Positions 5,464 through 52,043 of a stretch of 64,000 nt of DNA are shown piece after piece (position 1 is the stretch's first letter; each line of letters starts with the position of its first letter). The stretch comes from an uncultured Chloroflexia bacterium (GTDB lineage: Bacteria > Chloroflexota > Limnocylindria > QHBO01). The stretch spans positions 831,756 to 895,755 of the forward strand of contig CAVOGE010000007.1 in assembly GCA_963695195.1 (NCBI GenBank). Reading direction: 5' to 3'. The position numbers and the translations under genes are program-made. A model generated the notes under the pieces. That model searched no databases. It was not told the origin of the DNA and was given only the letters and a program-made list of their open reading frames with translations.

Positions 5464-5570
5464 CTGGTAAGACTCGGGCCCCGTCCGCGCCAGTTGCCGA
5501 AGTAGCTCAGTGGTAGAGCAACGGTTTCGTAAACCGTCGGTCGAGGGTTCGAGTCCCACCTTCGGCTCCA
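5464..5570 (+). repeat. Direct repeat copy 1 (tRNA-Thr plus ~32 nt upstream flank)
   Basis: ~97% identical to 10780..10885. A second shorter block 5349..5414 matches 10626..10689. Confidence 0.85.
5496..5570 (+). tRNA. tRNA-Thr (anticodon CGT), CCA encoded
   Basis: Cloverleaf: GCCGAAG acceptor, D-loop AGCTCAGTGGTAGAGC, anticodon loop TTCGTAA, T-loop TTCGAGT, 3' CTTCGGC-T-CCA. One A-A mismatch in the T-stem relative to the copy at 10811. Confidence 0.9.
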
Positions 5571-10779: not shown

Positions 10780-10885
10780 CTGGTAGACTCGGGCCCCGTC
10801 CGCGCCAGTTGCCGAAGTAGCTCAGTGGTAGAGCAACGGTTTCGTAAACCGTCGGTCGAGGGTTCGAGTCCCTCCTTCGGCTCCA
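10780..10885 (+). repeat. Direct repeat copy 2 (tRNA-Thr plus upstream flank)
   Basis: See copy 1. The pair brackets a 5.2-kb segment. Confidence 0.85.
10811..10885 (+). tRNA. tRNA-Thr (anticodon CGT), CCA encoded
   Basis: Differs by one nucleotide from the copy at 5496 (fully paired T-stem GAGGG/CCCTC). ~35 nt of upstream flank also conserved. Confidence 0.9.
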
Positions 10886-13493: not shown

Positions 13494-14240
13494 ATGGTCG
13501 ACCGGCCCCGGATTGTGGTCACCCTGCACGGCCCCGAGCAGGCCGCGCTCGAAGAGCCGACCTGGGCGACATTCGACAACTACCTGGTTGCGGTGCATCG
13601 CGCCGGTGGCGATCCGGTCCCGCTCGACCCGGGCACCAGCGCCGCTGAGCGTCTCGCCGCGTTTGCCGTGATGGATGGACTCCTCCTCCCCGGCGGGGCC
13701 GACCTGGACCCGGGCCTGTACGGCGAGGAGCCACATCCGGCCGCGCAGGTCGAGGCGGTTCGCGACGACCTCGAGCTCGAGGCGTGGCGGGCAGCACGCC
13801 GGCACGGCGTTCCAGTGCTTGGCGTCTGCCGGGGCTTCCAGGCGATCAACGTCTTTTCCGGTGGTTCGCTGGTGCAGCACCTCGAAGGGCACGACACCTC
13901 GGGCCTGCCGGCGGCCCATCCGCTGCACCTCGACCCCGCTTCGCGGCTCGCGGTCATTCTCGGCGACGCGGCCCCGATGATCAGCACCGAGGTCAACTCC
14001 TACCACCACCAGGCGGTGCGGCCGCGAGATCTTGCTCCCGGGCTCGTCGCCACGGGCCTGGCGCCGCACCACGACGGAGACCTGGTGGAGGCACTCGAGG
14101 CGGCCGATCCGACCGACTGGCTGCTCGGCGTCCAGTGCCACCCGGAGCGGCCCGAGTTCATGGCTCCAGAGTTCGACCGGCTGTGGCGCGCCTTCGTGGA
14201 CGCCGCTCGGGTCAGCTCAGGTCGACGTAGACGTTCTTGA
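13494..14240 (+). CDS. Gamma-glutamyl-gamma-aminobutyrate hydrolase family protein (class I glutamine amidotransferase-like, peptidase C26; PuuD-like)
   Basis: GVCRGFQAINVFSGGSL catalytic Cys motif, HH...E triad region. Confidence 0.8.
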   Translation: MVDRPRIVVTLHGPEQAALEEPTWATFDNYLVAVHRAGGDPVPLDPGTSAAERLAAFAVMDGLLLPGGADLDPGLYGEEPHPAAQVEAVRDDLELEAWRAARRHGVPVLGVCRGFQAINVFSGGSLVQHLEGHDTSGLPAAHPLHLDPASRLAVILGDAAPMISTEVNSYHHQAVRPRDLAPGLVATGLAPHHDGDLVEALEAADPTDWLLGVQCHPERPEFMAPEFDRLWRAFVDAARVSSGRRRRS

Positions 14241-15696
14241 CCTCGGTGTACAGCTCGACCGCGTGCATCCCCAGCTCGCGCCCGATGCCACTCATCTTGT
14301 AGCCACCGAAGGGCGCCTCGGTGTGTACGCTGCTGTTGCTGTTGACCGATAGCACACCGGCCTTCAGCCCCTTGACCACGCGCAACGCCCTGCCGATGTC
14401 GCGGCTCCAGACCGAGCCCGACAGCCCATACGGCGTGTCGTTGGCAAGGCGGAGCGCCTCCGCCTCGTCGTGGAACGGGATGATCGCCACCACCGGGCCA
14501 AAGATCTCCTCGCGCACGATGCGCATGTCGGTCCGGCAGGCGTCGAAGATGGTCGGCATCAGGTAGGCGCCATTGTCGAACTCGTCGCCGGTCGGGGCCT
14601 CGCCCCCGTAGACCAGTTCGGCTCCTTCTTCGCGGCCGATGGCGATGTAGTCGGCCACCCGCTCGCGCTGGCGCTGGCTGATCAGGCTCCCCATCTCGGT
14701 CTTGTCGTCGGACGGGTCGCCGACCACGACCTTGCGCGTCGCCTCGGTGAAGAGCTCGACTACGCGATCGTGGACCGTGTCCTGGACGAAGATCCGGCTC
14801 CGCGCGCAGCAGTCCTGTCCGGCGTTGTCGAAGACCGAGTACGGCGACTCGGCCGCGAACTTCTCGAGATCCGCGTCGTCGAAGACGATGTTCGGGCTCT
14901 TGCCGCCGAGCTCCAGCGAGATCTTCTTCACGTTGCCCGCAGCCAGCCGCATGATCTCCTGCCCGGTCGTCGTCTCCCCGGTGAACGCGATCTTGCCGAC
15001 ACCGGGATGCCCGGCCAGCGCCGCGCCGGCGGTGCCTCCCGGTCCGGTGATGACGTTGACCACGCCTGGCGGGAAACCGGCCTCCAGGGCCAGCTCGCCG
15101 AGGCGCAGGGCGCTGAGCGGCGTATAGCTCGCCGGCTTAAGGATGGTCGCGTTGCCGGCCGCCAGTGCCGGGCCGAGCTTCCAGCTGGCCATGTTCATCG
15201 GGAAGTTCCACGGCACGATCAGGCCGACCACGCCGATCGGCTCGCGCAGGGTGAAATCGAGCCCCGGCTTGGAGACCGGGATCGTCTCACCGAAGACCTT
15301 GTTCGCCGCGCCTGCGTAGTACTCGAACACGAGGCTGACGCCGAGTGCCTCGCCGCGGGCGCCGGAGATCGGCTTGCCGACGTTGCGGCTCTCGAGCTGG
15401 GCGAGCTCCTCGAGGTTCTGCTTCACCAGGTTCGAGAGCTTCTGCAGGGTGCGGCCGCGCTTGGCCGCTGACCAGGTCGACCAGCCGCGCGGGTCGTCGA
15501 GCGCCTTCTGCGCGGCGGTCACCGCGCGATCGACATCCTCCTTGCCCCCCAGCGGGGCTCGCGCAAGCAGCTCGCCACTCGCCGGGTTGGTGACATCAAA
15601 GGTCTGTCCGTCGGCGGCATCGACCTGCTCGCCGCCGATGATCATCTTCACGTTGCCGAGCGCCGGCGCAGCGGCCGCGCGGGATTCGGTGGTCAT
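14212..15696 (-). CDS. NAD(P)-dependent aldehyde dehydrogenase
   Basis: ALDH motifs (ELGGKSP, catalytic Cys in FDNAGQDCCARSR, GGYKMSGIGRE). ATG at 15696 (MTTESR...) chosen over the longer track ORF. Confidence 0.85.
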   Translation of the reverse strand: MTTESRAAAAPALGNVKMIIGGEQVDAADGQTFDVTNPASGELLARAPLGGKEDVDRAVTAAQKALDDPRGWSTWSAAKRGRTLQKLSNLVKQNLEELAQLESRNVGKPISGARGEALGVSLVFEYYAGAANKVFGETIPVSKPGLDFTLREPIGVVGLIVPWNFPMNMASWKLGPALAAGNATILKPASYTPLSALRLGELALEAGFPPGVVNVITGPGGTAGAALAGHPGVGKIAFTGETTTGQEIMRLAAGNVKKISLELGGKSPNIVFDDADLEKFAAESPYSVFDNAGQDCCARSRIFVQDTVHDRVVELFTEATRKVVVGDPSDDKTEMGSLISQRQRERVADYIAIGREEGAELVYGGEAPTGDEFDNGAYLMPTIFDACRTDMRIVREEIFGPVVAIIPFHDEAEALRLANDTPYGLSGSVWSRDIGRALRVVKGLKAGVLSVNSNSSVHTEAPFGGYKMSGIGRELGMHAVELYTEVKNVYVDLS

Positions 15697-15752
15697 GGGG
15701 AGCCTCACTTCATGGGCGGCGGATTGGGATGATTCTAGGCCGCAGACCGCCG

Positions 15753-16523
15753 CTAGAAGTAATTGACGCTGATCCCCCCGTCGATCACGAACTGCGCGCC
15801 GTTGGTCCACCGCGACTCATCCGAGGCGAGGTAGATGGCCGCGTTGACAACTTCCTCCGGCTTGCCGAAGCGACCAGTCGGGTTGCGGGCCAGGCGCAGC
15901 TGCTTGGCCGCCTCATCCTTGAGCAGCCACTCCATCAGCAGGGGCGTCTCGATCGGTCCGGGGCAGATCGCATTCGACCGGACGCCGCGGCCGCCGAATT
16001 GCACGGCCAGGGACCGGGTCAGCGACAGCACGGCGCCCTTGCTGGCGGTGTAGGCGTCCTGCGGGACGGAGCAGCCGAGCAGCGCCACGAAGCTGCTGAC
16101 ATTGATCACCGATCCGGAGCCCTGTTCCAGCATCCGCGGGATCGCGTACTTGCAGCCGAGGAAGACGCCACGCACGTTGACCGCCATCACCCGGTCCCAC
16201 GTCGCGACATCGGTGTCGATGACGCTGTGGTCGGGCTCCGGCATGATCCCGGCGTTGTTGTAGAGCGCGTCGACCCGGCCATAGGTCGCCGTCGCGTGCT
16301 CGACCATGCCGCGCGCGCTCTCCTCGTTCGACACGTCGGTCTTCACAAAGGTCGCCTGGCCGCCCGCGGCGGTGACCGCGGCGACCGTCTCGTTGCCTGC
16401 TCGCTCGTCGAACTCGGCCACCACCACCCGGGCGCCTTCTGCCGCGAACATCTGGGCGGCGGTTCGGCCCATGCCGCTGCCGGCCCCGGTGATGATCGCG
16501 ACCTTGTCGGTCAGTCGTTGCAT
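15753..16523 (-). CDS. SDR-family oxidoreductase
   Basis: TGAGSGMG Rossmann motif, NNAG, YTASKGAV catalytic Tyr-Lys. Confidence 0.85.
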   Translation of the reverse strand: MQRLTDKVAIITGAGSGMGRTAAQMFAAEGARVVVAEFDERAGNETVAAVTAAGGQATFVKTDVSNEESARGMVEHATATYGRVDALYNNAGIMPEPDHSVIDTDVATWDRVMAVNVRGVFLGCKYAIPRMLEQGSGSVINVSSFVALLGCSVPQDAYTASKGAVLSLTRSLAVQFGGRGVRSNAICPGPIETPLLMEWLLKDEAAKQLRLARNPTGRFGKPEEVVNAAIYLASDESRWTNGAQFVIDGGISVNYF

Positions 16524-16528
16524 ATCGG

Positions 16529-17914
16529 TCAGCCTCGCTCCAGGTATCGCTCGCGGTCCCAGGGATGGACGATCGCGTCGTAGGTCTCCTGCTCGACGCG
16601 TGCCGCGTTGAGGTAGTGCGCCACCACGTCGGCGCCGAAGATGTCGACGGCCGCCTGTGAATCCTCGAGCTCGCGGATTGCCTCGTGCAGCGCGCGCGGC
16701 ATCCGGTCGCAGCCGGTCGCGACGTAGCCGTTCCCCTTGTACTCTGCCGGCGGCTCGATCCCGCGCTCGATGCCGAGCAGCCCCGCCCCCACCACCGCGG
16801 CGTAGGTGAGGTACGAGTTCATGTCGCCGCCGGGGAAGCGGTTCTCGATGTGGAGGCCCGGCCCGTCACCGACCACCCGAAAGCCGGTCGTGCGGTTGTC
16901 GCGGCCCCAGACCACATTGACCGGCGCCCAGGAGGCGACCGCATAGCGCTTGTACGAGTTCACGTTCTGCGCAGCAAAGACGGAAAGCTCCCGGGCGTAG
17001 GCCATCATGCCGCCGAGGTAGTGGCGCATCGTCTCCGTCATTCCGTAGGGCTCGGCGCCCTCCTTCGCGAAGAGCGGCGTGCGCCCGTCGGGGCTCCACA
17101 GGCTCATGTGCAGGTGGCCCGATGACCCGGTCCAGGTGTGATCGGGCTTGCTCATGAAGGTCAGCCCGAAGCCGTTCAGCCAGGCGATCTCCTTTGCGCC
17201 GTGCTTGAACAGGACCGATTGGTCCGACATGGTCAGGACATCGGTGTAGTGGATGTTGACCTCGTGCTGGCCGGGGGCAGCCTCGCCCTTGCTGAACTCG
17301 ACGGGGATGCCCGCCTCGGTCATCAGGTTGCGCAGCCTGCCGTGGATCGGCTCGCCCTTGGTCGCCTGCAGGAGGTGGTAGTCCTCGTTGTACTTGCCGA
17401 ATCGCTCGAGGCCGACGAAGCCCTTCTCGTAGGCCTGCTCGTAGGTGTCGGTCAGCAGGTAGTACTCGAACTCGGAGCCGGCCATCACCGAGAAGCCCAT
17501 GGCTGCCGCCTTGGCGACGACCTTCTTGAGGATGGTGCGCGGCGAGACGGGTATCTCCTGGCCGTGGTGATCCACGGTGTCGGACAGCACGATGGCCGTC
17601 TTCTCCAACCACGGCACCACGCGCATGGTGTCCCACAGCGGGTCGGCGATCCAGTCGCCGTAGCCGGACTCCCAGTTCATAAGCGCATATCCGTCCGGCG
17701 TGTTCATCTCCATGTCGGTGCCCAGCAGGTAGGTGCAGAAGTGGGCGCCGTGGTCGATCGCGCCATTCAGGAAGGCCTGGCCCTGGACGCGCTTGCCCAT
17801 CAGCCGGCCCTGCATGTCGGTGAGGGCCACCACGAGCGTGTCGATTCGCCCGTCGCGCACCATCTGCTTCAACTCGGCGAGCTTCGGATGATCGCCCTGG
17901 TGGTCCTTGCTCAT
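16529..17914 (-). CDS. Glutamine synthetase-family protein (gamma-glutamyl-amine synthetase, PuuA/GlnA3-like)
   Basis: GS catalytic domain motifs (GSSGHLHMSLW, NRFPGGDMNSYL). Upstream of SDR and ALDH in the same operon. Confidence 0.85.
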   Translation of the reverse strand: MSKDHQGDHPKLAELKQMVRDGRIDTLVVALTDMQGRLMGKRVQGQAFLNGAIDHGAHFCTYLLGTDMEMNTPDGYALMNWESGYGDWIADPLWDTMRVVPWLEKTAIVLSDTVDHHGQEIPVSPRTILKKVVAKAAAMGFSVMAGSEFEYYLLTDTYEQAYEKGFVGLERFGKYNEDYHLLQATKGEPIHGRLRNLMTEAGIPVEFSKGEAAPGQHEVNIHYTDVLTMSDQSVLFKHGAKEIAWLNGFGLTFMSKPDHTWTGSSGHLHMSLWSPDGRTPLFAKEGAEPYGMTETMRHYLGGMMAYARELSVFAAQNVNSYKRYAVASWAPVNVVWGRDNRTTGFRVVGDGPGLHIENRFPGGDMNSYLTYAAVVGAGLLGIERGIEPPAEYKGNGYVATGCDRMPRALHEAIRELEDSQAAVDIFGADVVAHYLNAARVEQETYDAIVHPWDRERYLERG

Positions 17915-17996
17915 CGGTTCCCTTCGTCTCTCGTGTGCATGAAAGGTGGGCCGGCCGGATTGCCCGACCGGCCCACAACGGACGCCAGCGACCGAA

Positions 17997-19607
17997 CTAG
18001 TCGCCGAACTTGCCAGCCTCGGACTCGAACTCGCGCTCGATCTCGCTCAACTCCTGCTCGCTTCCCTGGCGGCGCGGACCGGCGAACCGGGTCCGTGCCC
18101 ACCCGAAGTAGTAGAGCAGCAGGAACACGATGAAGCCAAGGACCGTCCACAGGGCGGCCGGGTTCAAGGCGTACGGGAAGAGGAAGAGCGGAGTGATCAG
18201 GATGACCCAGATCACCGCGATCATGGCCATCGGTCGGCTGTAGCGCCCGAGGCTCCAGACACGCACGTTGCGCCACGATTGATCACCCCACAGGCCCAGA
18301 CCGATGCACACCGCGTATGCCCAGTAGAGCAGCACGGTGCTGATTCCGGTCACGCCGGCGATCAGGAAGAACGGATCGCCTCCCAGGGCGTTGGTCAGGA
18401 CATAGATCAGGGCGATCAACAGCCAGCTCAGGATGCTGATTGCGATGACCGAGTTGGCGGGTGTTCGGTAGCGAACGCTCACCTTCTTGAGCCACTTGCT
18501 CCCCGGCACCCCGTCGTCCCGACTGAAGGCGAACAGCATCCGCCCCGCCGATGCGATTGAGCTGAACCCGCAGAAGGTCATCGCGAAGGCGATGCCCACC
18601 GCGAGCAGGCCGCCGAGCTTGTCCAGGCCGGCACCCAGGTTGGTCTCCAGGATGTAGGCCACGCCGCCGCCACCGCCACTGTTCGCCAGAACGTCGGCGG
18701 GGTCGGTCATCTTGAGGGTGAGCGCGACGAGCACGATGTAGCCGACCACGGCAGACACCGCGACCGACAGGAAGACGCCCCAGCCGGATGCCATGCGGGC
18801 GTTGACGGTCTCCTCGGCGACATGCGCCGAGGCGTCGTAGCCGGTGTAGGTCCACTGGGCCTGCAGCAGGCTCAGGGCGAAGGCGCCCGCCACGCCGAAC
18901 GGCAGCAGCGTCGCAATCGGGTCGCCGTCGGCGCTCACGCCGGCGGGCGCGACCGTGAACAGGAACCCAACGTCATGGGTTGCATTCGTCCCGAGGGCGA
19001 ACAGCAGGATCGTGATGGCGGCCACGAAGAAGATGTGCCACCAGACCGACAGGTCGTTCATGAACGAGACAATGCGGGTGCCGGCGACGTTGAAGCCGAT
19101 CTCGATGAGGATCAGCGCACCGGTAATCCAGATCGCGTTGAGCACTCCCAGTGTCTCCAGGTTCGGGTCGATCCCGAACACCGGGTTGAGCAGTGTCGCG
19201 GTCAGGTAGTACGCCGCCGAGAAGTTGATGCCGGCGACGATCGAGATCTGGCCACCCAGGTTCAGCCAGGCGGTCCACCAGCCCCAGTTCTTGTTCTTCA
19301 GGCGGCTCGCCCAGTAGTACAGGCCACCGGCCGTCGGATAGGCAGATGCGATCTCGGCCATGGTGGCGGCGATCATCAGCGTGAAGACCGTCACGAGCGG
19401 CCACCCGAGGCCGACCGAAGCCGGTCCGCCCAGGGCAAGTCCGTAGTTGAACAGGATGACCGCGCCCGTCAGGATCGAGATGATGCTGAAGCTGATGGCG
19501 AAGTTGCTGAAGCCGCCCATGCTGCGCAGCAGCTCCTGGGCATAGCCGAGTCCGTGTAGGTCGCGGACGTCCTGCTGGATGACGTCCTCGCGGGATCGCT
19601 GCGTCAT
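17997..19607 (-). CDS. APC-family amino-acid/polyamine permease
   Basis: 12-TM APC permease. ATG 19607 (MTQRSRED...) with GGAGAGG SD, chosen over the longer track ORF. Confidence 0.8.
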   Translation of the reverse strand: MTQRSREDVIQQDVRDLHGLGYAQELLRSMGGFSNFAISFSIISILTGAVILFNYGLALGGPASVGLGWPLVTVFTLMIAATMAEIASAYPTAGGLYYWASRLKNKNWGWWTAWLNLGGQISIVAGINFSAAYYLTATLLNPVFGIDPNLETLGVLNAIWITGALILIEIGFNVAGTRIVSFMNDLSVWWHIFFVAAITILLFALGTNATHDVGFLFTVAPAGVSADGDPIATLLPFGVAGAFALSLLQAQWTYTGYDASAHVAEETVNARMASGWGVFLSVAVSAVVGYIVLVALTLKMTDPADVLANSGGGGGVAYILETNLGAGLDKLGGLLAVGIAFAMTFCGFSSIASAGRMLFAFSRDDGVPGSKWLKKVSVRYRTPANSVIAISILSWLLIALIYVLTNALGGDPFFLIAGVTGISTVLLYWAYAVCIGLGLWGDQSWRNVRVWSLGRYSRPMAMIAVIWVILITPLFLFPYALNPAALWTVLGFIVFLLLYYFGWARTRFAGPRRQGSEQELSEIEREFESEAGKFGD

Positions 19608-19870
19608 GTGGAACCTCTCCTCCAGTGTCGGAATCGGCGCTGCGGCGGCCGCCGCGCGCACGGCAAGGATCGGGTCACGCGTGGGCGATACGGCGGGCGA
19701 GTAGGCGAACCCTCCTTCCACATGCGGACGGCGCTGCGCCGGTGTGAGGCGCAGCCCGGAAGGGAGCGCCCCGCGGGCAGTTGCGGGTCGGCCCACGGGA
19801 CTATACGCACGTTACGGGGTCGCTGGGAAGGCCTGAAATGCGAGGGATCGCCAGCGGACGCCGGGCGGTC

Positions 19871-31785: not shown

Positions 31786-31862
31786 TGGTGCCCCCAACCG
31801 GATTCGAACCGGTGATCTCCACCTTGAAAGGGTGGCGTCCTAGGCCTCTAGACGATGGGGGC
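31786..31862 (-). tRNA. tRNA-Glu (anticodon TTC)
   Basis: Reverse complement folds as GCCCCCA acceptor, D-loop TAGAGGCCTAG, anticodon loop CTTTCAA, T-loop TTCGAAT, CCA encoded. Confidence 0.85.
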
Positions 31863-31946: not shown

Positions 31947-32255
31947 CTACAGGTAGAAGAGGATGATCAGGATCGCCGCACCGGCCAGCGCGACGGCGGC
32001 GAGCAGGATCATCACCCCGCCGCCCACCGCGATCGCCAGCGCCATGCCGGGACCTCGGCTGCGGTAGGCCCGCTGCGACCAGATCCAGCCCTGCGCGAAG
32101 AGGAAGACGCCGACCCCGGCGGCGATCAGGGAGCTTCCCAACATCGCCAACACCGACAGCCCGGAGTCGTCGCCGGCGAATGCCAGCGCCGTCAGGGCGG
32201 CTGCGATCAGCAGCGCCACCACCCCGATCACCACGTTCCGAGCGAACGGATGCAT
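31947..32255 (-). CDS. Small membrane protein (3 TM), unknown function
   Basis: ATG directly abuts the TAG of the upstream Mo-oxidoreductase gene. Very hydrophobic. Confidence 0.45.
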   Translation of the reverse strand: MHPFARNVVIGVVALLIAAALTALAFAGDDSGLSVLAMLGSSLIAAGVGVFLFAQGWIWSQRAYRSRGPGMALAIAVGGGVMILLAAVALAGAAILIILFYL

Positions 32256-32858
32256 CTAGAAGTCCGAGTAGCGCTCTTCGCGCCACGGGTCGGCCGAGTT
32301 GGAGTAGCCGTTGCGCTCCCAGAAGCCGGGCCGATCCTCGCTGCTGAACTCGACGCCGCGCAGCCACTTGGCGCTCTTCCAGAAGTACCGGGCGGGGACG
32401 ATCGCTCGCAGCGGATAGCCGTGCTCCGCCTCGAGCGGCTTCCCGTCGAAGTCCCAGGCGAGCAGGGCGGCCGGATCAAGCGCGATCTCAATCGGCACAT
32501 TGCTGGTGTAGCCGTACTCGGCGTGGAAGATGACGAAGCGCGCGCTGGAACGGGGTTGCGCCACCTCGGCGATGTGCGTCATCGACACGCCCTTCCACGT
32601 GGTGCCGAGCTTCGACCAACGGGTGACGCAGTGGATATCGAGCGTCGTCTCGCTGACCGGCAGCTGCCGGAACTCGGTCCAGTTCAGGGTGAAGGGCGTC
32701 TCCACGTCGCCGAAGACGCGGAAGTCCCAGCGCGACAGGTCTGGGTATTCGGGGACCCGCCCGAAGTGCAGCACCGGGAACTTCTCGGTCAGGACCTGGC
32801 CCGGCGGGACGCGCTTGGCCATCTCCGGATCGATCACCGGCTTCTGCCACTTGAACAT
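32256..32858 (-). CDS. Sulfite-oxidase-like molybdopterin-dependent oxidoreductase (YuiH/MsrP-like catalytic domain, no signal peptide)
   Basis: Moco-binding fold motifs (HCVTRWSKLGTTWKGV, HGYPLRAIVP). ATG 32858 (MFKWQKP...). Confidence 0.75.
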   Translation of the reverse strand: MFKWQKPVIDPEMAKRVPPGQVLTEKFPVLHFGRVPEYPDLSRWDFRVFGDVETPFTLNWTEFRQLPVSETTLDIHCVTRWSKLGTTWKGVSMTHIAEVAQPRSSARFVIFHAEYGYTSNVPIEIALDPAALLAWDFDGKPLEAEHGYPLRAIVPARYFWKSAKWLRGVEFSSEDRPGFWERNGYSNSADPWREERYSDF

Positions 32859-32889: not shown

Positions 32890-35247
32890 TCAAGGCGTGC
32901 CTCCAACCGCCGTCAGCACCTGGTCGAGGGTGTCGACGATCAGATCGGCCTCCTGGGCCGTGGCGCACAACGGCGGGCGAACCTTCAGCACGTTGCCCTG
33001 GCGACCCGTGGTGCCGATCAGGACGCCCTGCTCGCGCATCTGGTCGCGGACCTGCGCCGCGACGTCGCCGGCCGGCCCGCGTGTTGCGCGGTCGACGACC
33101 AGCTCCACGCCGGTCATCAGGCCGCGACCCCGGATGTCGCCGATGACAGGGTGGCGCGCCGCAAGATCACCAAGCGCGGCCCGCAGCCCCTCTCCGACCA
33201 CGCGCGAGCTCTCCAGCAGGTTCTCGTCGTCCAGGATGTCGAGCACGGCCAGCCCCGCGGCGCAGGCAACCGGGTTGCCGCCGAAGGTGCTGAAGAACTC
33301 GGTCTCGGCGGCGAATCGGTCGACGATGTCGGCGCGAGTGATGACCGCGGCGATCGGATGGCCGTTGCCCATCGGCTTTCCCAGGGTGACGATGTCGGGG
33401 GTGATGCCCCAGGCGGAGAAGCTCCACAGGCCATCGCCGCCACGCCCGTGGCCGGCCTGCACCTCGTCGGCCACCAGCATCGCCCCGGCGGCGCGGGCAC
33501 GCGCCAGCATCGGCGCCAGGTGCGCGGAACCCGGGGCGAAGATCCCGTCCGAGGTGAAGAGGGTGTCGAGGTAGAGCGCGGCCGGCCGGTGGCCTCGCTC
33601 CGAGAGCCGAGCGACGGCCAGGTCGATCTCGGTCGCGGCCCGCTCCCCCGGGTCGGCGAGCTCGCGGTAGATGCCCCGGTAGGCATCGGGCGGCGGGATC
33701 GTCTCCACGTGCGCCGGCTGCTCGCCGCGCGGCCACTCCGACGGCGAGAGATCGGCAATGGCGGCGCTCACGCCGTGGTACGCCCAGGCGTTGACGATGG
33801 CCCCGGTCGCGCCGCTCACGATCGTCGCCAGCCGCCAGGCGAGGTCGGTCGCCTCGCTTCCCGAGTTCACGAACATGACCGTGTCGAGCCCCTCGGGCAT
33901 GGTCGCCACCAGTCGCTCCGCGAGCTCAATCGCCGCCTCGTGCAGGTAGCGCGTGTTCGTGTTCAGCGTGGCCGCCTGGTGGGCGATCGCCTCGACCACA
34001 CGCGGGTGCGAGTGGCCCACCACCGGCACGTTGTTGTACGCGTCGAGGTAGGCGCGGCCACCGGTGTCGAACAGCCAGCTGCGCTCGCCGCGGACCAGGT
34101 GCAGCGGGCGGCGGTAGGTGAGCGGTGAGAGGGCGCTGCCCAGGACGCGGCCCCGGCGTGCGATCAGCTCCGCGGTGCCGGCGGCTCGCCATCCCGGTGC
34201 GGCCAGCGGAACCGGTCGTGCGGCGGTCGCCAGGCGGCGCCCCGCCTCGTCAACGCCGACCGCCTCGAGCTGTTCGAGCAGCCGCCAGGCCGGATCGGTC
34301 CAGCCGGTGATGTAGGCGTTGTCGGGGTACTGCCGCGTCCGCCACTCCGAGATCAGGATCGTCTGCACCATCCGCGCGGCGAGCAGGTCACCGAGCAGGT
34401 CCGCCTCCATCTGCTCGAGCGGCGTCACCGAGGTGTACCCGCGCAGGAAGGCCTCGGCGACCTCGAAGATGTCGTCCCGGCCGCGCAGCAGGGACTGGAG
34501 CGTGGCCGAGATGTCGGCCACCAGGGCGGTGTGGGCCATGTCGCCAAAGTCGATGATCCCGGTCACGCGTCCGGCTTCGTCGAGGAGCAGGTTGTCGAGC
34601 GTGGCGTCGTCGTGGATGACCTGTGCCCGCAACGTCGCGTACACCGGCAGGACCCGCTCGTCGTGGCGCTTCAGGGCTCGCGCCAGGAGTGCATGGCGCC
34701 CCGGCTCCTCGACCAGCGCGTGATGCTCCCGCATGGCGGGGATGTGCTTGAGGTCCCACCAGATCGCGCGCCCCGCGGACGGATGGAAGAAGCCGCGCAG
34801 CGCCCGACCCAGGCGCGCCACCGTGACGCCGATCCCCTCGATCGACTCTACGCCAAGCTCGGTCGCATCCACGTTGCGCCCCGGCAGGGCCGGCAGCAGG
34901 CGAACCAGGTGCGCGACGCCGTCGGCGCCCCTGACGAGGCCGACAGGTCCGCCCTCGAGCGTCTGAACTCCCACCGGGACGGGGAGCGACGGGTCGATGC
35001 GCGCCACGTGCTCGACCGCGGCGACCTCCATCTCGACCACCCCCGGCTCTTCGCCGGCGTTGGAGACCTTCAGCACCCAGCCCGGGTTGGCCGCACCGGT
35101 CGGATCGGTGATGCGGAAGTTCTGGTCGCGCTCGCTGACCAGCGGGCTGGCCCTGCCGGCGATGCCGAAGGTGGTCCGGACGATGTCCTCCGCCTCGGCG
35201 ACGGTCAGGCTCGGTGGATCGATCCCCAGGACGCCGGCGGTCTGCAT
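32890..35247 (-). CDS. Fusion protein: APH/homoserine-kinase-like phosphotransferase domain plus class-III (AGXT2L-like) PLP aminotransferase/phospho-lyase domain
   Basis: N-terminal kinase motifs (HDDATLDNLLLD, IDFGD). C-terminal class III PLP fold (PLP Lys in VTLGKPMGNGHP). ATG 35247. Confidence 0.8.
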   Translation of the reverse strand: MQTAGVLGIDPPSLTVAEAEDIVRTTFGIAGRASPLVSERDQNFRITDPTGAANPGWVLKVSNAGEEPGVVEMEVAAVEHVARIDPSLPVPVGVQTLEGGPVGLVRGADGVAHLVRLLPALPGRNVDATELGVESIEGIGVTVARLGRALRGFFHPSAGRAIWWDLKHIPAMREHHALVEEPGRHALLARALKRHDERVLPVYATLRAQVIHDDATLDNLLLDEAGRVTGIIDFGDMAHTALVADISATLQSLLRGRDDIFEVAEAFLRGYTSVTPLEQMEADLLGDLLAARMVQTILISEWRTRQYPDNAYITGWTDPAWRLLEQLEAVGVDEAGRRLATAARPVPLAAPGWRAAGTAELIARRGRVLGSALSPLTYRRPLHLVRGERSWLFDTGGRAYLDAYNNVPVVGHSHPRVVEAIAHQAATLNTNTRYLHEAAIELAERLVATMPEGLDTVMFVNSGSEATDLAWRLATIVSGATGAIVNAWAYHGVSAAIADLSPSEWPRGEQPAHVETIPPPDAYRGIYRELADPGERAATEIDLAVARLSERGHRPAALYLDTLFTSDGIFAPGSAHLAPMLARARAAGAMLVADEVQAGHGRGGDGLWSFSAWGITPDIVTLGKPMGNGHPIAAVITRADIVDRFAAETEFFSTFGGNPVACAAGLAVLDILDDENLLESSRVVGEGLRAALGDLAARHPVIGDIRGRGLMTGVELVVDRATRGPAGDVAAQVRDQMREQGVLIGTTGRQGNVLKVRPPLCATAQEADLIVDTLDQVLTAVGGTP

Positions 35248-35283
35248 GAGGCCGATCGTACACGCCGGTAGACTCGACGGAGG

Positions 35284-37008
35284 ATGGTCCGCTCCGCACC
35301 CTTCGCCGAGTTCGCCCGCGTCGCCGATGCGGTCGCCTCCACCACCTCCAAGCTGGCGAAACGCGACGCGCTGGCGGCGTACCTGCGGGCGCTGGCGCCC
35401 GACGACCTGCAGGCGGCGGTGACCTTCTTCGCCGGACGCCCGCTCCCGGGAGCCGCCGATCGGCTGGGCCTCGGCTGGGTTCAACAGTCGCAGTCACTCG
35501 CCGCCGCGGCCCAGGCCGACCCCGCGGCGCTCCACGCGGCCTACCTGCGCCACTCCGATTTCGGCGACGCGGCCGCCGAGCTGTTGGCGCATGCGGCCCC
35601 CACCGGCCATCCTCTGACGCTCGGAGCGGTCCGCGACGCGTTCCGGGCCATGAGCGAGACCTCTTCCACCGAGGCGCGCGTGGCGGAGATGACGCGCCTC
35701 TTCGAACGTGCGTCGCCGGAGGAGGCGCGCTACGCCGCACGGATCGCGGCGCGCGAGCTGCGCATCGGCCTGCGGGAGGGGCTGCTGGAGGAGGCGATCG
35801 CCGCTGCCTTCCAGCGGCCGCTCGGTGCGGTGCGCCAGGCGCACATGCTGCTCGGCGAGCCCGGGGAGGCGGCCGCGCTGGCCAGGGACGACCGGCTGGC
35901 CGAGGCCGCGCTCCATCTCGGCCGACCGATCCGCTTCATGCTCGCCACCCCGGTGGCCGATGCCGACGAGGTGATGCGCCGGGTCGGCGACGAGGCGTGG
36001 ATCGAGGACAAGTACGACGGCATCCGCGCCCAGCTGCATCTCGTCGCCGGCGAGGCCCCGCGCCTCTTCTCGCGCGACCTCAACGAGATCACCGCCTCGT
36101 TCCCCGAGGTCGCCCAGGCGGCCGCCGGCCTGGCGCAGAAGATGGTGATCGACGGGGAGCTGGTCCCGTATCGGTCCGGATCGGTGCTCGACTTCGCGAG
36201 TCTGCAGACGCGCCTTGGCCGGGTTGCGCCGAGCCCCGAGCTGATCGCCGAGGTGCCGGTCGTGCTGGTCGCATTCGACCTCCTGCATCTGGCAGGTCGC
36301 GACCTTCTGGAGGTGCCGCTGCGTGAGCGCCGTGCCGCGCTCGAGGCGCTCAGTCTGCCCCTGCTGACCGAAGGTCGGTTCCTCCTCTCGCACCTCGCGG
36401 CGGCGCGATCGGCCGACGAGGTGGAGCGTCACTTCGACGATGCCCGTGAGCGCCGCAACGAGGGCCTGATGGTCAAGGACCCCGATTCGGTCTACCAGCC
36501 CGGGCGGCGCGGGCTCGGCTGGCTGAAGCTGAAGAAGGCGCTCGCCACGCTCGACTGCGTGGTGGTGGGGGTCGAGTGGGGCCACGGCAAGCGGCGCGGC
36601 GTCCTCTCCGACTACACCTTCGCCGTGCGCTCGCCCGACGGCGAGTCGCTGCTCACCATTGGCAAGGCCTACACCGGCCTGACCGATGCGGAGATCGCAG
36701 CCATGACAGAACGATTCAAGGCCACGACGCTCCAGGACTTCGGTCGCTACCGGACCGTCGTCCCCGAGGTGGTGGTGGAGATCGCCTTCGACCGAATCAT
36801 GCGCTCGAAGCGGCACGACTCAGGTTTCGCGATGCGCTTCCCCCGCATCGTCCGCATCCGCGATGACAAGGCACGGGCCGAAATCGATGACCTCGCCACC
36901 GTGGAGAAGCTCTTCACCGCACAGGCGAGCGGCCGGATCCTGCTGGCACGTGGGCCGCGCGGGGAGATGGAGCGCATCACCGCCACCGGTGAGACGGATG
37001 GGGACTAG
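35284..37008 (+). CDS. ATP-dependent DNA ligase, LigB/Lig1-type (N-terminal DNA-binding domain, nucleotidyltransferase, OB)
   Basis: Intact motif I EDKYDGIRAQL, motif III/IV/V (FDLLHLAG, EGLMVKD, WLKLKK). Confidence 0.85.
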   Translation: MVRSAPFAEFARVADAVASTTSKLAKRDALAAYLRALAPDDLQAAVTFFAGRPLPGAADRLGLGWVQQSQSLAAAAQADPAALHAAYLRHSDFGDAAAELLAHAAPTGHPLTLGAVRDAFRAMSETSSTEARVAEMTRLFERASPEEARYAARIAARELRIGLREGLLEEAIAAAFQRPLGAVRQAHMLLGEPGEAAALARDDRLAEAALHLGRPIRFMLATPVADADEVMRRVGDEAWIEDKYDGIRAQLHLVAGEAPRLFSRDLNEITASFPEVAQAAAGLAQKMVIDGELVPYRSGSVLDFASLQTRLGRVAPSPELIAEVPVVLVAFDLLHLAGRDLLEVPLRERRAALEALSLPLLTEGRFLLSHLAAARSADEVERHFDDARERRNEGLMVKDPDSVYQPGRRGLGWLKLKKALATLDCVVVGVEWGHGKRRGVLSDYTFAVRSPDGESLLTIGKAYTGLTDAEIAAMTERFKATTLQDFGRYRTVVPEVVVEIAFDRIMRSKRHDSGFAMRFPRIVRIRDDKARAEIDDLATVEKLFTAQASGRILLARGPRGEMERITATGETDGD

Positions 37009-39068: not shown

Positions 39069-39929
39069 ATGGCACGCTCAATGTGGCGCGGGGCGATCCA
39101 GTTCGGGCTGGTGACGATCCCGGTCAAGCTCTACCTGGCAACCGAGAGCACCTCGATCGGCTTCAACATGCTGCACGCCGATTGCCTGAATCGGATCCAG
39201 ATGAAGATCTACTGCCCGCACCACGACGAGGTGGTTCCCCGCTCCGATACCGTGCGCGGGTACGAGTGGAGCAAGGGCCGCTACGTGGTGATGACCGACG
39301 CGGAGATGGACGCCGTCCCGCTCAAGACGGTGCGCGCCATCGAGATCGAGATGTTCGTGGACGCAAAGCGCGAGGCCCACGAGGCGCAGTTCGTCAAGCA
39401 GGCCTACTACCTGGAGCCCGATCCGATGGGTGCCAAGGCGTTCGAGCTGCTCCGCCAGGTGCTCGCCGAGCAGGGCAAGACGGCCATCTGCAAGATCGTG
39501 CTGAAGGACCGCGAGCAGCTCGCGGCGCTGAACCCGTTCGACACCACCATGCTGCTGACCACACTCCACTGGCCAGACGAGGTTCGCTCGCACACCGAGC
39601 TCAACCTGCCGACCGAGCCGATCGCCGTGAAGCCCGCCGAGCGGGCCATGGCCGAGCAGCTGATCGCCTCGATGACCGGTGAATTCTCGCCGGCCGACTA
39701 CCGTGACGACTATCGGGCGGCCCTCATGTCGGTGATCGAAGCCAAGGTTGGCGGCGAGGAGCCGGTGCCCGCCCAGCGTGTCGAGCCGACCAAGATCGGC
39801 GACCTCATGGCGGCACTCGAGGCCAGCGTGGCTGCCGCCCGCGAGGCGCGACGGAGTGCTGCCGTTGAGCCGCCCTCGGAGACCGCCGACGCCGACCAGC
39901 GGCCGGCGCGCCGCCGCCGGTCCGCCTAG
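39069..39929 (+). CDS. ku: Ku protein (non-homologous end joining)
   Basis: MWRGAIQFGLVTIPVKLY N-terminus, Ku core, basic C-terminal tail. Confidence 0.9.
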   Translation: MARSMWRGAIQFGLVTIPVKLYLATESTSIGFNMLHADCLNRIQMKIYCPHHDEVVPRSDTVRGYEWSKGRYVVMTDAEMDAVPLKTVRAIEIEMFVDAKREAHEAQFVKQAYYLEPDPMGAKAFELLRQVLAEQGKTAICKIVLKDREQLAALNPFDTTMLLTTLHWPDEVRSHTELNLPTEPIAVKPAERAMAEQLIASMTGEFSPADYRDDYRAALMSVIEAKVGGEEPVPAQRVEPTKIGDLMAALEASVAAAREARRSAAVEPPSETADADQRPARRRRSA

Positions 39930-51146: not shown

Positions 51147-51194
51147 GGCCGGATCATGCCACGCGTGCTACGCTCGGCGCGACAACTCCATAGC

Positions 51195-51276
51195 GACAGG
51201 GGAGCGCGCGAGCGCTGAGAGTGCGGCAGGCCGCAGACCCTCGAACCTGATCTGGGTCATACCAGCGAAGGGAGTC
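51195..51276 (+). ncRNA. TPP (THI-box) riboswitch
   Basis: GGGGAGC...GCUGAGA...ACCC...AACCUGAUCUGGGUCAUACCAGCGAAGGGA matches the THI element core. Sits 5' of the thiamine pyrophosphokinase / ECF transporter operon. Confidence 0.85.
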
Positions 51277-51392
51277 GGTTTGAACCGTGCGACGGCGCGC
51301 CCCAACCAGGTGCGCCGTTCCTGATTCCGAACGGACCGATGCGTGGTCCGGCGCGCCCCGTCGCCCGTTGCCCAAGACAGGAGGAGCGTGCG

Positions 51393-52043
51393 GTGAAAGC
51401 GGTGGTGGTGGCCGGCGGTGACGCCCACCGCGGCGATGCAGCGCACCTGGTCGACGCCGACCTGGTGATTGCCGCCGACGGCGGGGTGCAATGGCTGGAT
51501 GAGATCGGGGTGCCGCCACACGTGGTCGTGGGCGACCTCGACTCGGCCGACCCGCGGCTGATCGAGCGGCTCGAGATGGAGGGGGTACCGATCGAGCGCC
51601 ACCCGGTCGACAAGGACGCCTCTGACGCCGAGCTGGCCGTTGGCCGGGCCGTGACGGCCGGTGCCGGCGAGGTGCTGATCCTGGGCGCCCTCGGCGGCGA
51701 TCGCATCGACCACGAGCTGGCAAACCTGCTTCTCCTCACCGCCCCGCGGTGGCGCGGGCACAGGCTTCGGATCGTCCGGGGCTCGACCTCGGTCCAGGCG
51801 CTGGCCGCGGGAGAGCGGCTCGCGCTCGCCGGCGCGCCCGGCGACCTCGTCACGCTGCTGCCGATCTCCGGAGACGCCGCCGGCGTGTGGACCGAAGGGC
51901 TTCGCTACGCGCTCGCCGGCGAGACGCTCGTGGCTGGGTCGACCCGCGGCCTATCGAACGAGGTGGTGCTCGCACCGGCATCGGTTCGGACCGATGCGGG
52001 CAGTCTGCTGGTCATCGAAACGCCAAGGGAGGTCGGTCCGTGA
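51393..52043 (+). CDS. Thiamine pyrophosphokinase
   Basis: TPK catalytic and thiamine-binding domains (VVVAGGD, ADGG, GDLDS). GTG 51393 with AGGAGG SD. Confidence 0.75.
   Translation: MKAVVVAGGDAHRGDAAHLVDADLVIAADGGVQWLDEIGVPPHVVVGDLDSADPRLIERLEMEGVPIERHPVDKDASDAELAVGRAVTAGAGEVLILGALGGDRIDHELANLLLLTAPRWRGHRLRIVRGSTSVQALAAGERLALAGAPGDLVTLLPISGDAAGVWTEGLRYALAGETLVAGSTRGLSNEVVLAPASVRTDAGSLLVIETPREVGP

Follow-up and report, generated by a model that had tools for sequence, protein, structure and literature searches.

Does a gene that joins a kinase of the APH family to a class-III enzyme dependent on pyridoxal 5'-phosphate (PLP) encode two consecutive steps of one pathway and, if so, what chemistry would these steps accomplish together? 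The question is raised by a gene of 785 codons on the minus strand of contig CAVOGE010000007.1 of an uncultured bacterium of the Limnocylindria (Chloroflexota), which we have analysed within a stretch of 64,000 nucleotides (nt) with about 70% G+C (positions 831,756 to 895,755 of the contig; this whole stretch is hereafter called the window, and all positions are given in its own numbering). Quite probably this gene encodes a bifunctional catabolic enzyme that would deaminate a vicinal amino alcohol by the action of a kinase followed by that of a phospho-lyase. The proposal builds on the identity of the two domains, on the integrity of their catalytic residues, and on the coupling of the two halves across genomes; it is from these observations that we infer both activities, their order, and the class of the substrate.

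The open reading frame (ORF) extends on the minus strand from 32890 to 35484; with the ATG at 35247 as start codon it encodes 785 amino acids (aa) and ends with a TGA stop at 32890-32892. This choice of start is backed by a database protein that is 100% identical and exactly 785 aa long (P0001), and the N-terminus that it defines is common to 44 homologues; the extension of the ORF beyond it runs antisense into a divergent DNA-ligase gene, and the homologues are without it. The G+C contents of the three codon positions (0.76, 0.51 and 0.90, respectively) are typical for genuine genes of this window. An uninterrupted ORF with the same two domains is found in 66 independent loci and in at least 120 protein clusters (63-90% identity), and for this reason the fusion is not an artefact of assembly or frameshift.

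Both halves are recognized by Pfam at levels far above chance: APH (PF01636) matches residues 40-272 with 77.4 bits (E 1.9e-21, against a cutoff of 23.2 bits), and Aminotran_3 (PF00202) matches residues 382-778 with 237.7 bits (E 2.4e-70, against a cutoff of 30.5 bits). The initial annotation, made from the letters of the sequence, had described a single polypeptide with an APH-like kinase of some 330 aa followed by a class-III PLP enzyme of some 450 aa, and had left the domain boundaries to a profile search. The matches just given supply these boundaries and bear out the composition of the protein; the split is also roughly right, as the kinase fold reaches to about residue 343, and homology to phospho-lyases can be followed from residue 359 on. 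The kinase motifs quoted in that annotation are likewise present, at residues 212-223 (HDDATLDNLLLD) and 232-236 (IDFGD). In an AlphaFold model of the full-length protein both domains fold well; the predicted local distance difference test score (pLDDT) falls below 50 for residues 346-383, a stretch that takes in the N-terminal arm of the PLP domain, and the predicted template modelling (TM) score is 0.54. The model indicates a flexible linker and predicts no fixed arrangement of the domains. There is no Pfam match to Peptidase_M23 in the protein, and a linker of about 13-38 residues has no space for a third domain.

Among solved structures in the PDB, the best sequence matches of the PLP half are two phospho-lyases, A1RDF1 of Paenarthrobacter aurescens (5G4I, 345 bits) and human ETNPPL (6TOR, 342 bits); dialkylglycine decarboxylase comes next with 201 bits, a score that no other protein exceeds, and the 4-aminobutyrate (GABA) transaminases are at about 170. 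Identity is 40.7% to A1RDF1 and 42.2% to ETNPPL, with identical PLP-binding motifs, and 111 of 414 positions are the same in all three proteins; Arg757 (R757) aligns with an Arg in A1RDF1 and with a Lys in ETNPPL. When a model of the PLP half is searched with Foldseek, A1RDF1 and ETNPPL again come first (TM 0.89 and 0.92, respectively, on the target), the order being phospho-lyases (40-42% identity) ahead of racemases, the decarboxylase and transaminases (24-35% among the structures listed). By score and by structural rank, the PLP half is therefore grouped with the characterised phospho-lyases, not with transaminases, racemases or decarboxylases. This is the AGXT2L type to which the C-terminal half had first been assigned; the grouping with true transaminases that the initial annotation had named as the finding that would speak against it was not observed. 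An identity with PbfA was also considered and rejected: with the PbfA lyase model the protein reaches 211 bits, where 525 would be required.

It is very unlikely, in our estimate, that the PLP half is instead a true aminotransferase (or a racemase or decarboxylase) acting on the phosphorylated amine made by the kinase half and needing an amino acceptor. Such an enzyme would also match the generic Aminotran_3 profile and the many NCBIfam transaminase models that score about 170-250 bits here; it would agree with the labels given to the homologues by NCBI and IMG ('aminotransferase class III-fold' or '4-aminobutyrate aminotransferase-like'), and the class-III fold does allow several types of reaction. 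Both characterised phospho-lyases, however, score more than 140 bits above every transaminase and rank first structurally, and the obligatory pairing with a kinase, which would place a good leaving group beside the amine, fits an elimination. A1RDF1 itself is said, in work of Cuetos and co-workers from 2016, to be without transaminase activity.

The catalytic apparatus of a class-III enzyme is intact in the PLP half (Table 1). It includes the SGSEA motif, which we take to be the binder of the PLP phosphate as in other class-III enzymes, the lysine expected to form the Schiff base, Lys624, and the DEVQ motif, whose Asp594 would, by analogy, pair with the pyridine nitrogen of PLP.

The kinase half (residues 1-345) is modelled by AlphaFold with a pLDDT of 90.8 as a bilobal fold of the small-molecule-kinase type, which ends near residue 343. 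The best Foldseek matches of this model are small-molecule kinases, namely homoserine kinase II (2PPQ), the amicoumacin kinase AmiN, and the microcompartment aminopropanol kinase 6EF6; these three, as well as NahK and APH(9)/(2''), have a probability of 1.00, and the query-normalised TM of the ten best matches is 0.65-0.72 (TM 0.72/0.76 for 6EF6). Identity in the structural alignments with homoserine kinase II, amicoumacin kinase and 6EF6 is 16-19%, and a phmmer search of the solved structures gives 2PPQ as the best match, with only 24 bits.

Hydroxylysine kinase (HYKK), defined by the GTP-dependent phosphorylation of 5-hydroxy-L-lysine, is a closer relative. Vertebrate HYKK sequences were collected with human HYKK as bait, which matched a 100% identical entry as well as primate proteins, 94-95% identical, that bear the name 'hydroxylysine kinase'; the evidence drawn from this set comes from actual database entries only, under the names given by their source. 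Residues 8-331 of the kinase half align by BLASTP with residues 11-352 of Papio HYKK, thus end to end (124 bits, E 7e-37), and a comparison by hhalign of the profile of a 50-member bacterial family with that of vertebrate HYKK has a probability of 100% (E 6.4e-55, 331 columns). Stand-alone bacterial relatives of the kinase half are labelled 'hydroxylysine kinase' by IMG and UniRef. By sequence comparison, then, the kinase half belongs to the HYKK lineage and is closer to it than to other characterised kinases of the APH family, and the hydroxylysine-kinase type that had been read from its motifs is confirmed over the full length of the domain. Identity of the kinase half to HYKK is 24-25%, a level too low for the substrate to be transferred from one to the other.

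The residues expected of an active kinase are conserved as well. Lys60, in the sequence VLKVSN, is invariant in 45 of 45 close homologues and at least 90% conserved among 50 diverse members of the family; from the fold shared by APH enzymes and protein kinases, it is the putative nucleotide-binding lysine of strand beta-3. The catalytic loop carries HDDATLDN, a Brenner motif (HxDxxxxN) that runs on as LLLD up to residue 223: it is found in 120 of 120 homologues, its Asp214 and Asn219 are invariant in the 50-member diverse alignment, and it aligns with HGDLNDHN of vertebrate HYKK. Similarly, the DFG-like IDFGD is found in all 120 homologues, with Asp233, Phe234 and Asp236 invariant across the diverse family, and aligns with LDFDD of Papio HYKK (the vertebrate consensus at this place being LDFxD). 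Since the catalytic motif sets of the two halves are both kept in 120 of 120 homologues, which share 63-90% identity with the window protein, both halves are under selection as enzymes.

Table 1. Positions in the window of the two-domain gene, of its parts and motifs, and of the genes that follow it; functional terms are predictions.
Feature	Position	Strand	Basis
Whole gene, two-domain kinase/phospho-lyase protein, 785 codons plus TGA	32890..35247	-	ORF list, translation
Kinase half, residues 1-345, APH fold, hydroxylysine-kinase-like	34213..35247	-	Pfam, AlphaFold, Foldseek, HYKK homology
Codon for Lys60 (VLKVSN), putative nucleotide-binding beta-3 lysine	35068..35070	-	Conservation; inference from fold
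HDDATLDN, residues 212-219, Brenner catalytic-loop motif (HxDxxxxN): His212, putative catalytic Asp214, Asn219	34591..34614	-	Conservation
IDFGD, residues 232-236, DFG-like putative Mg2+-binding motif (Asp233)	34540..34554	-	Conservation
Inter-domain linker, Pro/Ala-rich, about residues 346-358	34174..34212	-	Low model confidence; A1RDF1 homology starts at residue 359
Phospho-lyase-like half, residues 359-785, class-III fold-type-I PLP domain	32893..34173	-	Pfam, PDB sequence search, Foldseek
SGSEA, residues 462-466, conserved class-III motif	33850..33864	-	Identical in A1RDF1 and ETNPPL; 120/120 homologues
DEVQ, residues 594-597, with Asp594 and Gln597	33457..33468	-	Identical in both solved phospho-lyases; invariant in homologues
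Codon for Lys624 (TLGKPMGNGHP), predicted Schiff-base lysine	33376..33378	-	Aligns with GKPMGNGHP of A1RDF1 and ETNPPL; invariant
200-aa sulfite-oxidase-fold molybdopterin oxidoreductase domain protein	32256..32858	-	Pfam Oxidored_molyb, 3.8e-39
102-aa predicted membrane protein, last gene of putative transcription unit	31947..32255	-	ORF, hydrophobic sequence
tRNA-Glu, after the 102-aa membrane protein gene	31786-31862		

With the kinase half alone as query, an exhaustive search gave 873 representative proteins at E <=1e-30; judged by size, the best 150 of them include 91 stand-alone proteins, 24 two-domain proteins, and 3 with a length of about 870-1000 aa. When species-representative genomes were scanned with a 10-sequence alignment, at least 569 relatives came up, of which 80 loci were kept and joined to six obtained earlier, and in the resulting 86 loci the phospho-lyase-like domain was placed by tblastn. 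It is fused to the kinase in the same ORF in 66 of them, fused around an insert in three, and encoded immediately next to it in 15; it is absent in two loci, one of which is truncated. Fusion or adjacency in 84 of the 86 loci, which belong to several phyla, is strong evidence for a shared pathway. Fusions predominate in Chloroflexota and Actinomycetota (Gaiellales, Kribbella, Nocardioides and others); Rhizobium and Bosea have separate genes in the order kinase, then lyase, either 7 nt apart or overlapping by 4 nt, and the adjacent arrangement is seen also in Variovorax, Caballeronia and Massilia. A few of the adjacent cases, in long-read metagenome-assembled genomes (MAGs), look like frameshifts.

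Two of the three loci with an insert (L078 and L051) contain some 240-260 additional aa with Peptidase_M23; in the third (L047) the apparent gap is shorter. The relatives in the former two loci have the order APH, Peptidase_M23, Aminotran_3 and are about 1000-1150 aa long as called (L078:5746-9027, Pseudaminobacter salicylatoxidans; L051:5494-8967, a deltaproteobacterial MAG). A fused gene, 43-47% identical over its kinase half, is found also in two contigs titled Candidatus Micrarchaeia archaeon (L019) and Patescibacteria group bacterium (L061); these names refer to lineages of very reduced metabolism, and the contigs are probably mis-binned.

A parallel case, which gives independent support to the coupling of a kinase with a lyase in the window enzyme, is provided by the genes around A1RDF1. 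This protein is AAur_pTC20101 of plasmid pTC2 of Paenarthrobacter aurescens TC1 (L087, CP000476.1, 2422-9876), and its cluster encodes a short-chain dehydrogenase/reductase (SDR), an amino-acid permease, an APH-family 'putative homoserine kinase', a TetR regulator, A1RDF1, and an aldehyde dehydrogenase (ALDH). The kinase of this cluster is 28% identical to the kinase half of the window protein; it matches 6EF6 with E 1e-30 and HYKK weakly, with 34 bits. Judging from these sequence relationships, two distinct APH lineages, one 6EF6-like and one HYKK-like, have been recruited to class-III phospho-lyases, and the window enzyme belongs to the HYKK-like one.

The same observations bear on the possibility that the halves are functionally unrelated, the N-terminal one being an antibiotic-resistance kinase or an RdoA-like Ser/Thr protein kinase joined to the PLP enzyme by chance. 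IMG does label the N-terminal part as 'Ser/Thr protein kinase RdoA (MazF antagonist)', and YihE/RdoA (1ZYL) and aminoglycoside kinases are among its structural neighbours. Against this, the identity of the kinase half to RdoA and to the aminoglycoside kinases amounts to only 10-17%, HYKK, a small-molecule kinase, is by far its closest characterised relative, and coupling to a lyase in 84 of 86 loci of several phyla is unexpected for unrelated functions; we regard a chance fusion as extremely improbable.

These results can be combined in a scheme by which the enzyme would remove the amino group of a vicinal (1,2-) amino alcohol, with no need of an amino acceptor or of vitamin B12. In a first step, proposed from homology, the APH domain would move the gamma-phosphate of ATP or GTP onto the hydroxyl of the amino alcohol, with the participation of Lys60, the catalytic Asp214, Asn219, and the Mg-binding Asp233. 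In the second step, modelled on A1RDF1 and ETNPPL, the PLP domain would work as a dimer with the Schiff-base Lys624 and with Asp594: an external aldimine would form with the amine, the alpha-proton would be removed, and phosphate would be eliminated. Hydrolysis of the resulting enamine/imine would then release an aldehyde (or ketone) with NH4+ and inorganic phosphate. The fusion would hold the two activities at 1:1 stoichiometry and close together, with no fixed inter-domain channel predicted. Such a two-step route had been put forward in the initial annotation: the genomic association of the two functions, in the 84 loci with fusion or adjacency and in the kinase/lyase cluster of A1RDF1, speaks in favour of this predicted route.

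Several facts weigh against the proposed kinase and phospho-lyase route, or at least against a narrow form of it. A search of the literature found no characterised bacterial enzyme in which a kinase and a lyase are fused. With an identity of 24-25% to HYKK and of 41-42% to the phospho-lyases, the substrate, and even the specificity of the reaction, could differ from those of the known enzymes; racemases, a decarboxylase, and PbfA-type lyases share the class-III fold, too. Finally, there is no permease, ALDH or regulator linked to the gene at the locus in this genome, and hence no local pointer to the substrate.

Candidate substrates and products under the proposed scheme are ethanolamine, which would give acetaldehyde, 1-aminopropan-2-ol, which would give propionaldehyde, and 5-hydroxylysine, which would give 2-aminoadipate semialdehyde; all three are established substrates for a kinase and lyase pair of this kind. 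The lineage of the kinase points towards the HYKK type, and both solved relatives of the lyase act on phosphoethanolamine. We consider it unlikely that the pathway is specifically one of 5-hydroxylysine catabolism, that is, a bacterial equivalent of human HYKK and 5-phosphohydroxy-L-lysine phospho-lyase (PHYKPL) leading to 2-aminoadipate semialdehyde. The full-length homology of the kinase half to HYKK, far closer than to the lineage of the aminopropanol kinase, would be explained by it, as would the automatic naming of relatives as 'hydroxylysine kinase'; moreover, AsnC/Lrp regulators, oligopeptide-type ATP-binding cassette (ABC) transporters, and M20 peptidases near the proteobacterial homologues suggest an amino-acid-like substrate. 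But the identity to HYKK is low, and the lyase half is about equally close to two phosphoethanolamine lyases in a comparison made without PHYKPL; no genes of lysine or aminoadipate pathways are adjacent within the window, and hydroxylysine, a constituent of animal collagen, would seem an improbable main substrate for oligotrophic Chloroflexota of soil and freshwater. It is likewise conceivable, though again we would not expect it, that in Limnocylindria and related soil bacteria the fused enzyme acts on some other amino alcohol (for example another hydroxy-amino acid, serinol, or a sphingoid/aminodiol headgroup), and would thus represent a catabolic route of a new kind, in which the phosphorylated intermediate might pass directly from one domain to the other. 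The reason for entertaining it is that the evidence fixes only the class of chemistry, that the kinase is so distant from HYKK, and that the neighbourhoods vary widely among phyla.

The neighbouring genes of the homologues provide some context for the proposed amino-alcohol deamination. In a clustering of the neighbours in the 86 loci, the sole family that recurs beyond the synteny of a clade is an SDR encoded just upstream, in 14 loci. As a clue to the substrate this SDR was rejected: its best PDB matches are generic SDRs, with 6CI8/6CI9 ranking about 20th, and it is not specifically similar to aminopropanol dehydrogenase. In other phyla the neighbours include permeases, ABC transporters, GntR and AsnC regulators, SDR, ALDH, deacylases, and M20 peptidases; these neighbourhoods are typical of small-amine catabolism and carry no uniform substrate signal.

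Within the window, a cluster on the minus strand at 14212-19661 encodes an amino-acid permease, a glutamine synthetase (GS)-like ligase, an SDR, and an ALDH, and looks like a gamma-glutamyl-amine catabolic set of the polyamine or ethanolamine type; none of its proteins reaches an NCBIfam equivalog cutoff. The suggestion had been made that the aldehyde produced by the fused enzyme could feed this ALDH/gamma-glutamyl cluster, some 17 kb away. The data lend it no support: genes for ribosomal protein L25, a two-component system, an HtrA-type protease, a PASTA Ser/Thr kinase, and a nucleotidyl transferase intervene, and neither a GS-like ligase nor a similar permease accompanies the fusion gene in any of the 86 related loci.

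On the plus strand, 36 bp upstream of the fusion gene, a divergent gene for an ATP-dependent DNA ligase extends from 35284 to 37008, and a Ku gene is at 39069-39929, which suggests a locus of non-homologous end joining; genes for a ligase domain and for Ku are close to the fusion gene also in a related locus (L001). The 36 bp between the two divergent start codons (35248-35283) contain the hexamer TACGAT at 35255-35260, 7 nt upstream of the ATG at 35247, and no Shine-Dalgarno sequence is seen before this ATG; the position of the hexamer, together with this absence, suggests that the fusion mRNA is leaderless. On the other strand of the same gap, GGAGG directly abuts the ATG of the ligase gene.

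Downstream, the stop codon of the fusion gene is separated by 17-32 nt from the gene for the molybdopterin oxidoreductase domain protein, which is probably co-transcribed with it; a scan for promoters and terminators between the fusion and the downstream genes found no terminator and nothing else of use. As a partner in the pathway, for example as an oxidiser of the aldehyde, the molybdopterin protein was rejected: it occurs in five of the 86 loci, confined to the closest Limnocylindria clade, where it accompanies the unrelated ligase gene. We know of no aldehyde oxidases among the enzymes with sulfite-oxidase fold. The 102-aa membrane protein encoded next has no Pfam or NCBIfam match and is syntenic in three related loci (L001, L010, L014). 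The local arrangement, ligase gene included, recurs only in the closest Limnocylindria clade (L001, L010, L013, L016). In a second Limnocylindria clade, of about 64% identity, the fusion gene stands alone, flanked on one side by a divergent gene for a Glu/Leu/Phe/Val dehydrogenase and on the other by a convergent one for a thiolase; the dehydrogenase gene, which encodes 422 aa, is always divergent and lies about 150-260 bp upstream (L002-L006). Both Limnocylindria arrangements are treated here as synteny, not as functional linkage, although the dehydrogenase may have some connection with the handling of ammonia.

Elsewhere in the window, a 101-nt direct repeat (99% identity) is present on the plus strand at 5470-5570 and 10785-10885, 5315 nt apart. 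Each copy consists of a tRNA-Thr(CGT) with 26 nt upstream, and the two copies bracket genes for a KdpD-like sensor kinase (DUF4118, HisKA and HATPase), a response regulator, and a 677-aa permease-like protein, in an interval of slightly lower G+C in which no integrase was seen. A thiamine pyrophosphate (TPP) riboswitch (51188-51290, plus strand; 67 bits against a gathering score of 54.3) precedes ORFs that start at 51393.

If the proposed amino-alcohol deamination is correct, the Limnocylindria, which are abundant and mostly uncultured bacteria of soil and freshwater, would possess a self-contained, ATP-driven and B12-independent means of obtaining nitrogen and carbon from amino alcohols, for example ethanolamine. 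Public labels presently read 'aminotransferase class III-fold enzyme' or 'GABA aminotransferase-like / RdoA kinase', and the survey of loci warrants a more fitting name, bifunctional amino-alcohol kinase / phospho-lyase (predicted). The architecture is widespread, is already partly modelled by NCBIfam in its three-domain form, and was recognized earlier, so that it is not new biology as such; what retains interest is the physiological substrate in bacteria.

The window enzyme can be placed among a small number of known systems. The aminoacetone / 1-amino-2-propanol pathway of the RMM microcompartment of Mycobacterium and Rhodococcus, in which an SDR is combined with the aminopropanol kinase 6EF6 and with a class-III enzyme, follows the same logic of an APH kinase with a class-III PLP enzyme directed at an amino alcohol; the kinase half has 6EF6 among its best structural matches, and an SDR lies beside the fused homologues in the 14 loci mentioned above. 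Its genes, however, are separate, 6EF6 is 19% identical in structural alignment and gives no phmmer match to the kinase half at E up to 1, and no genes for shell proteins with BMC domains are found among the neighbours: on these last two counts an RMM-type aminopropanol kinase/lyase system was rejected. The NCBIfam families PRK06148 and PRK06149 (about 1000 aa, with APH, Peptidase_M23 and Aminotran_3) are the top NCBIfam matches over both halves and are of the same lineages, but the window protein is without their M23-like middle domain of about 240-260 aa. It falls below both cutoffs (743 against 1128 bits, and 615 against 973 bits), and for these two reasons we regard it as a shorter two-domain variant and not as a member of either family.

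With EutBC, the B12-dependent ethanolamine ammonia-lyase, the enzyme would share the products acetaldehyde and ammonia if its substrate were ethanolamine; the proteins and the mechanism are unrelated, EutBC using radical adenosylcobalamin chemistry at no cost of ATP. ETNPPL (AGXT2L1, 6TOR) and A1RDF1 (5G4I, 5G4J), which belong with PHYKPL to the PLP-dependent phospho-lyases of amino-alcohol phosphates (EC 4.2.3.2 and 4.2.3.134) and provide the best sequence and structure matches of the PLP half, differ from it in being stand-alone proteins. The nearest counterpart of the whole is the human pair of HYKK (AGPHD1) and PHYKPL (AGXT2L2), in which an APH-family kinase, of which the kinase half is a full-length homologue, is likewise followed by a class-III PLP phospho-lyase; the window enzyme, distant as its kinase is from HYKK, would carry both activities on one polypeptide. 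This pair was reportedly described in 2012 by Veiga-da-Cunha and co-workers, who are said to have noted that bacterial homologues of AGXT2L1/2 can be bi- or tri-functional proteins with a kinase of the APH family, and to have taken such bacterial fusions as a clue to the function of human HYKK, PHYKPL and ETNPPL.

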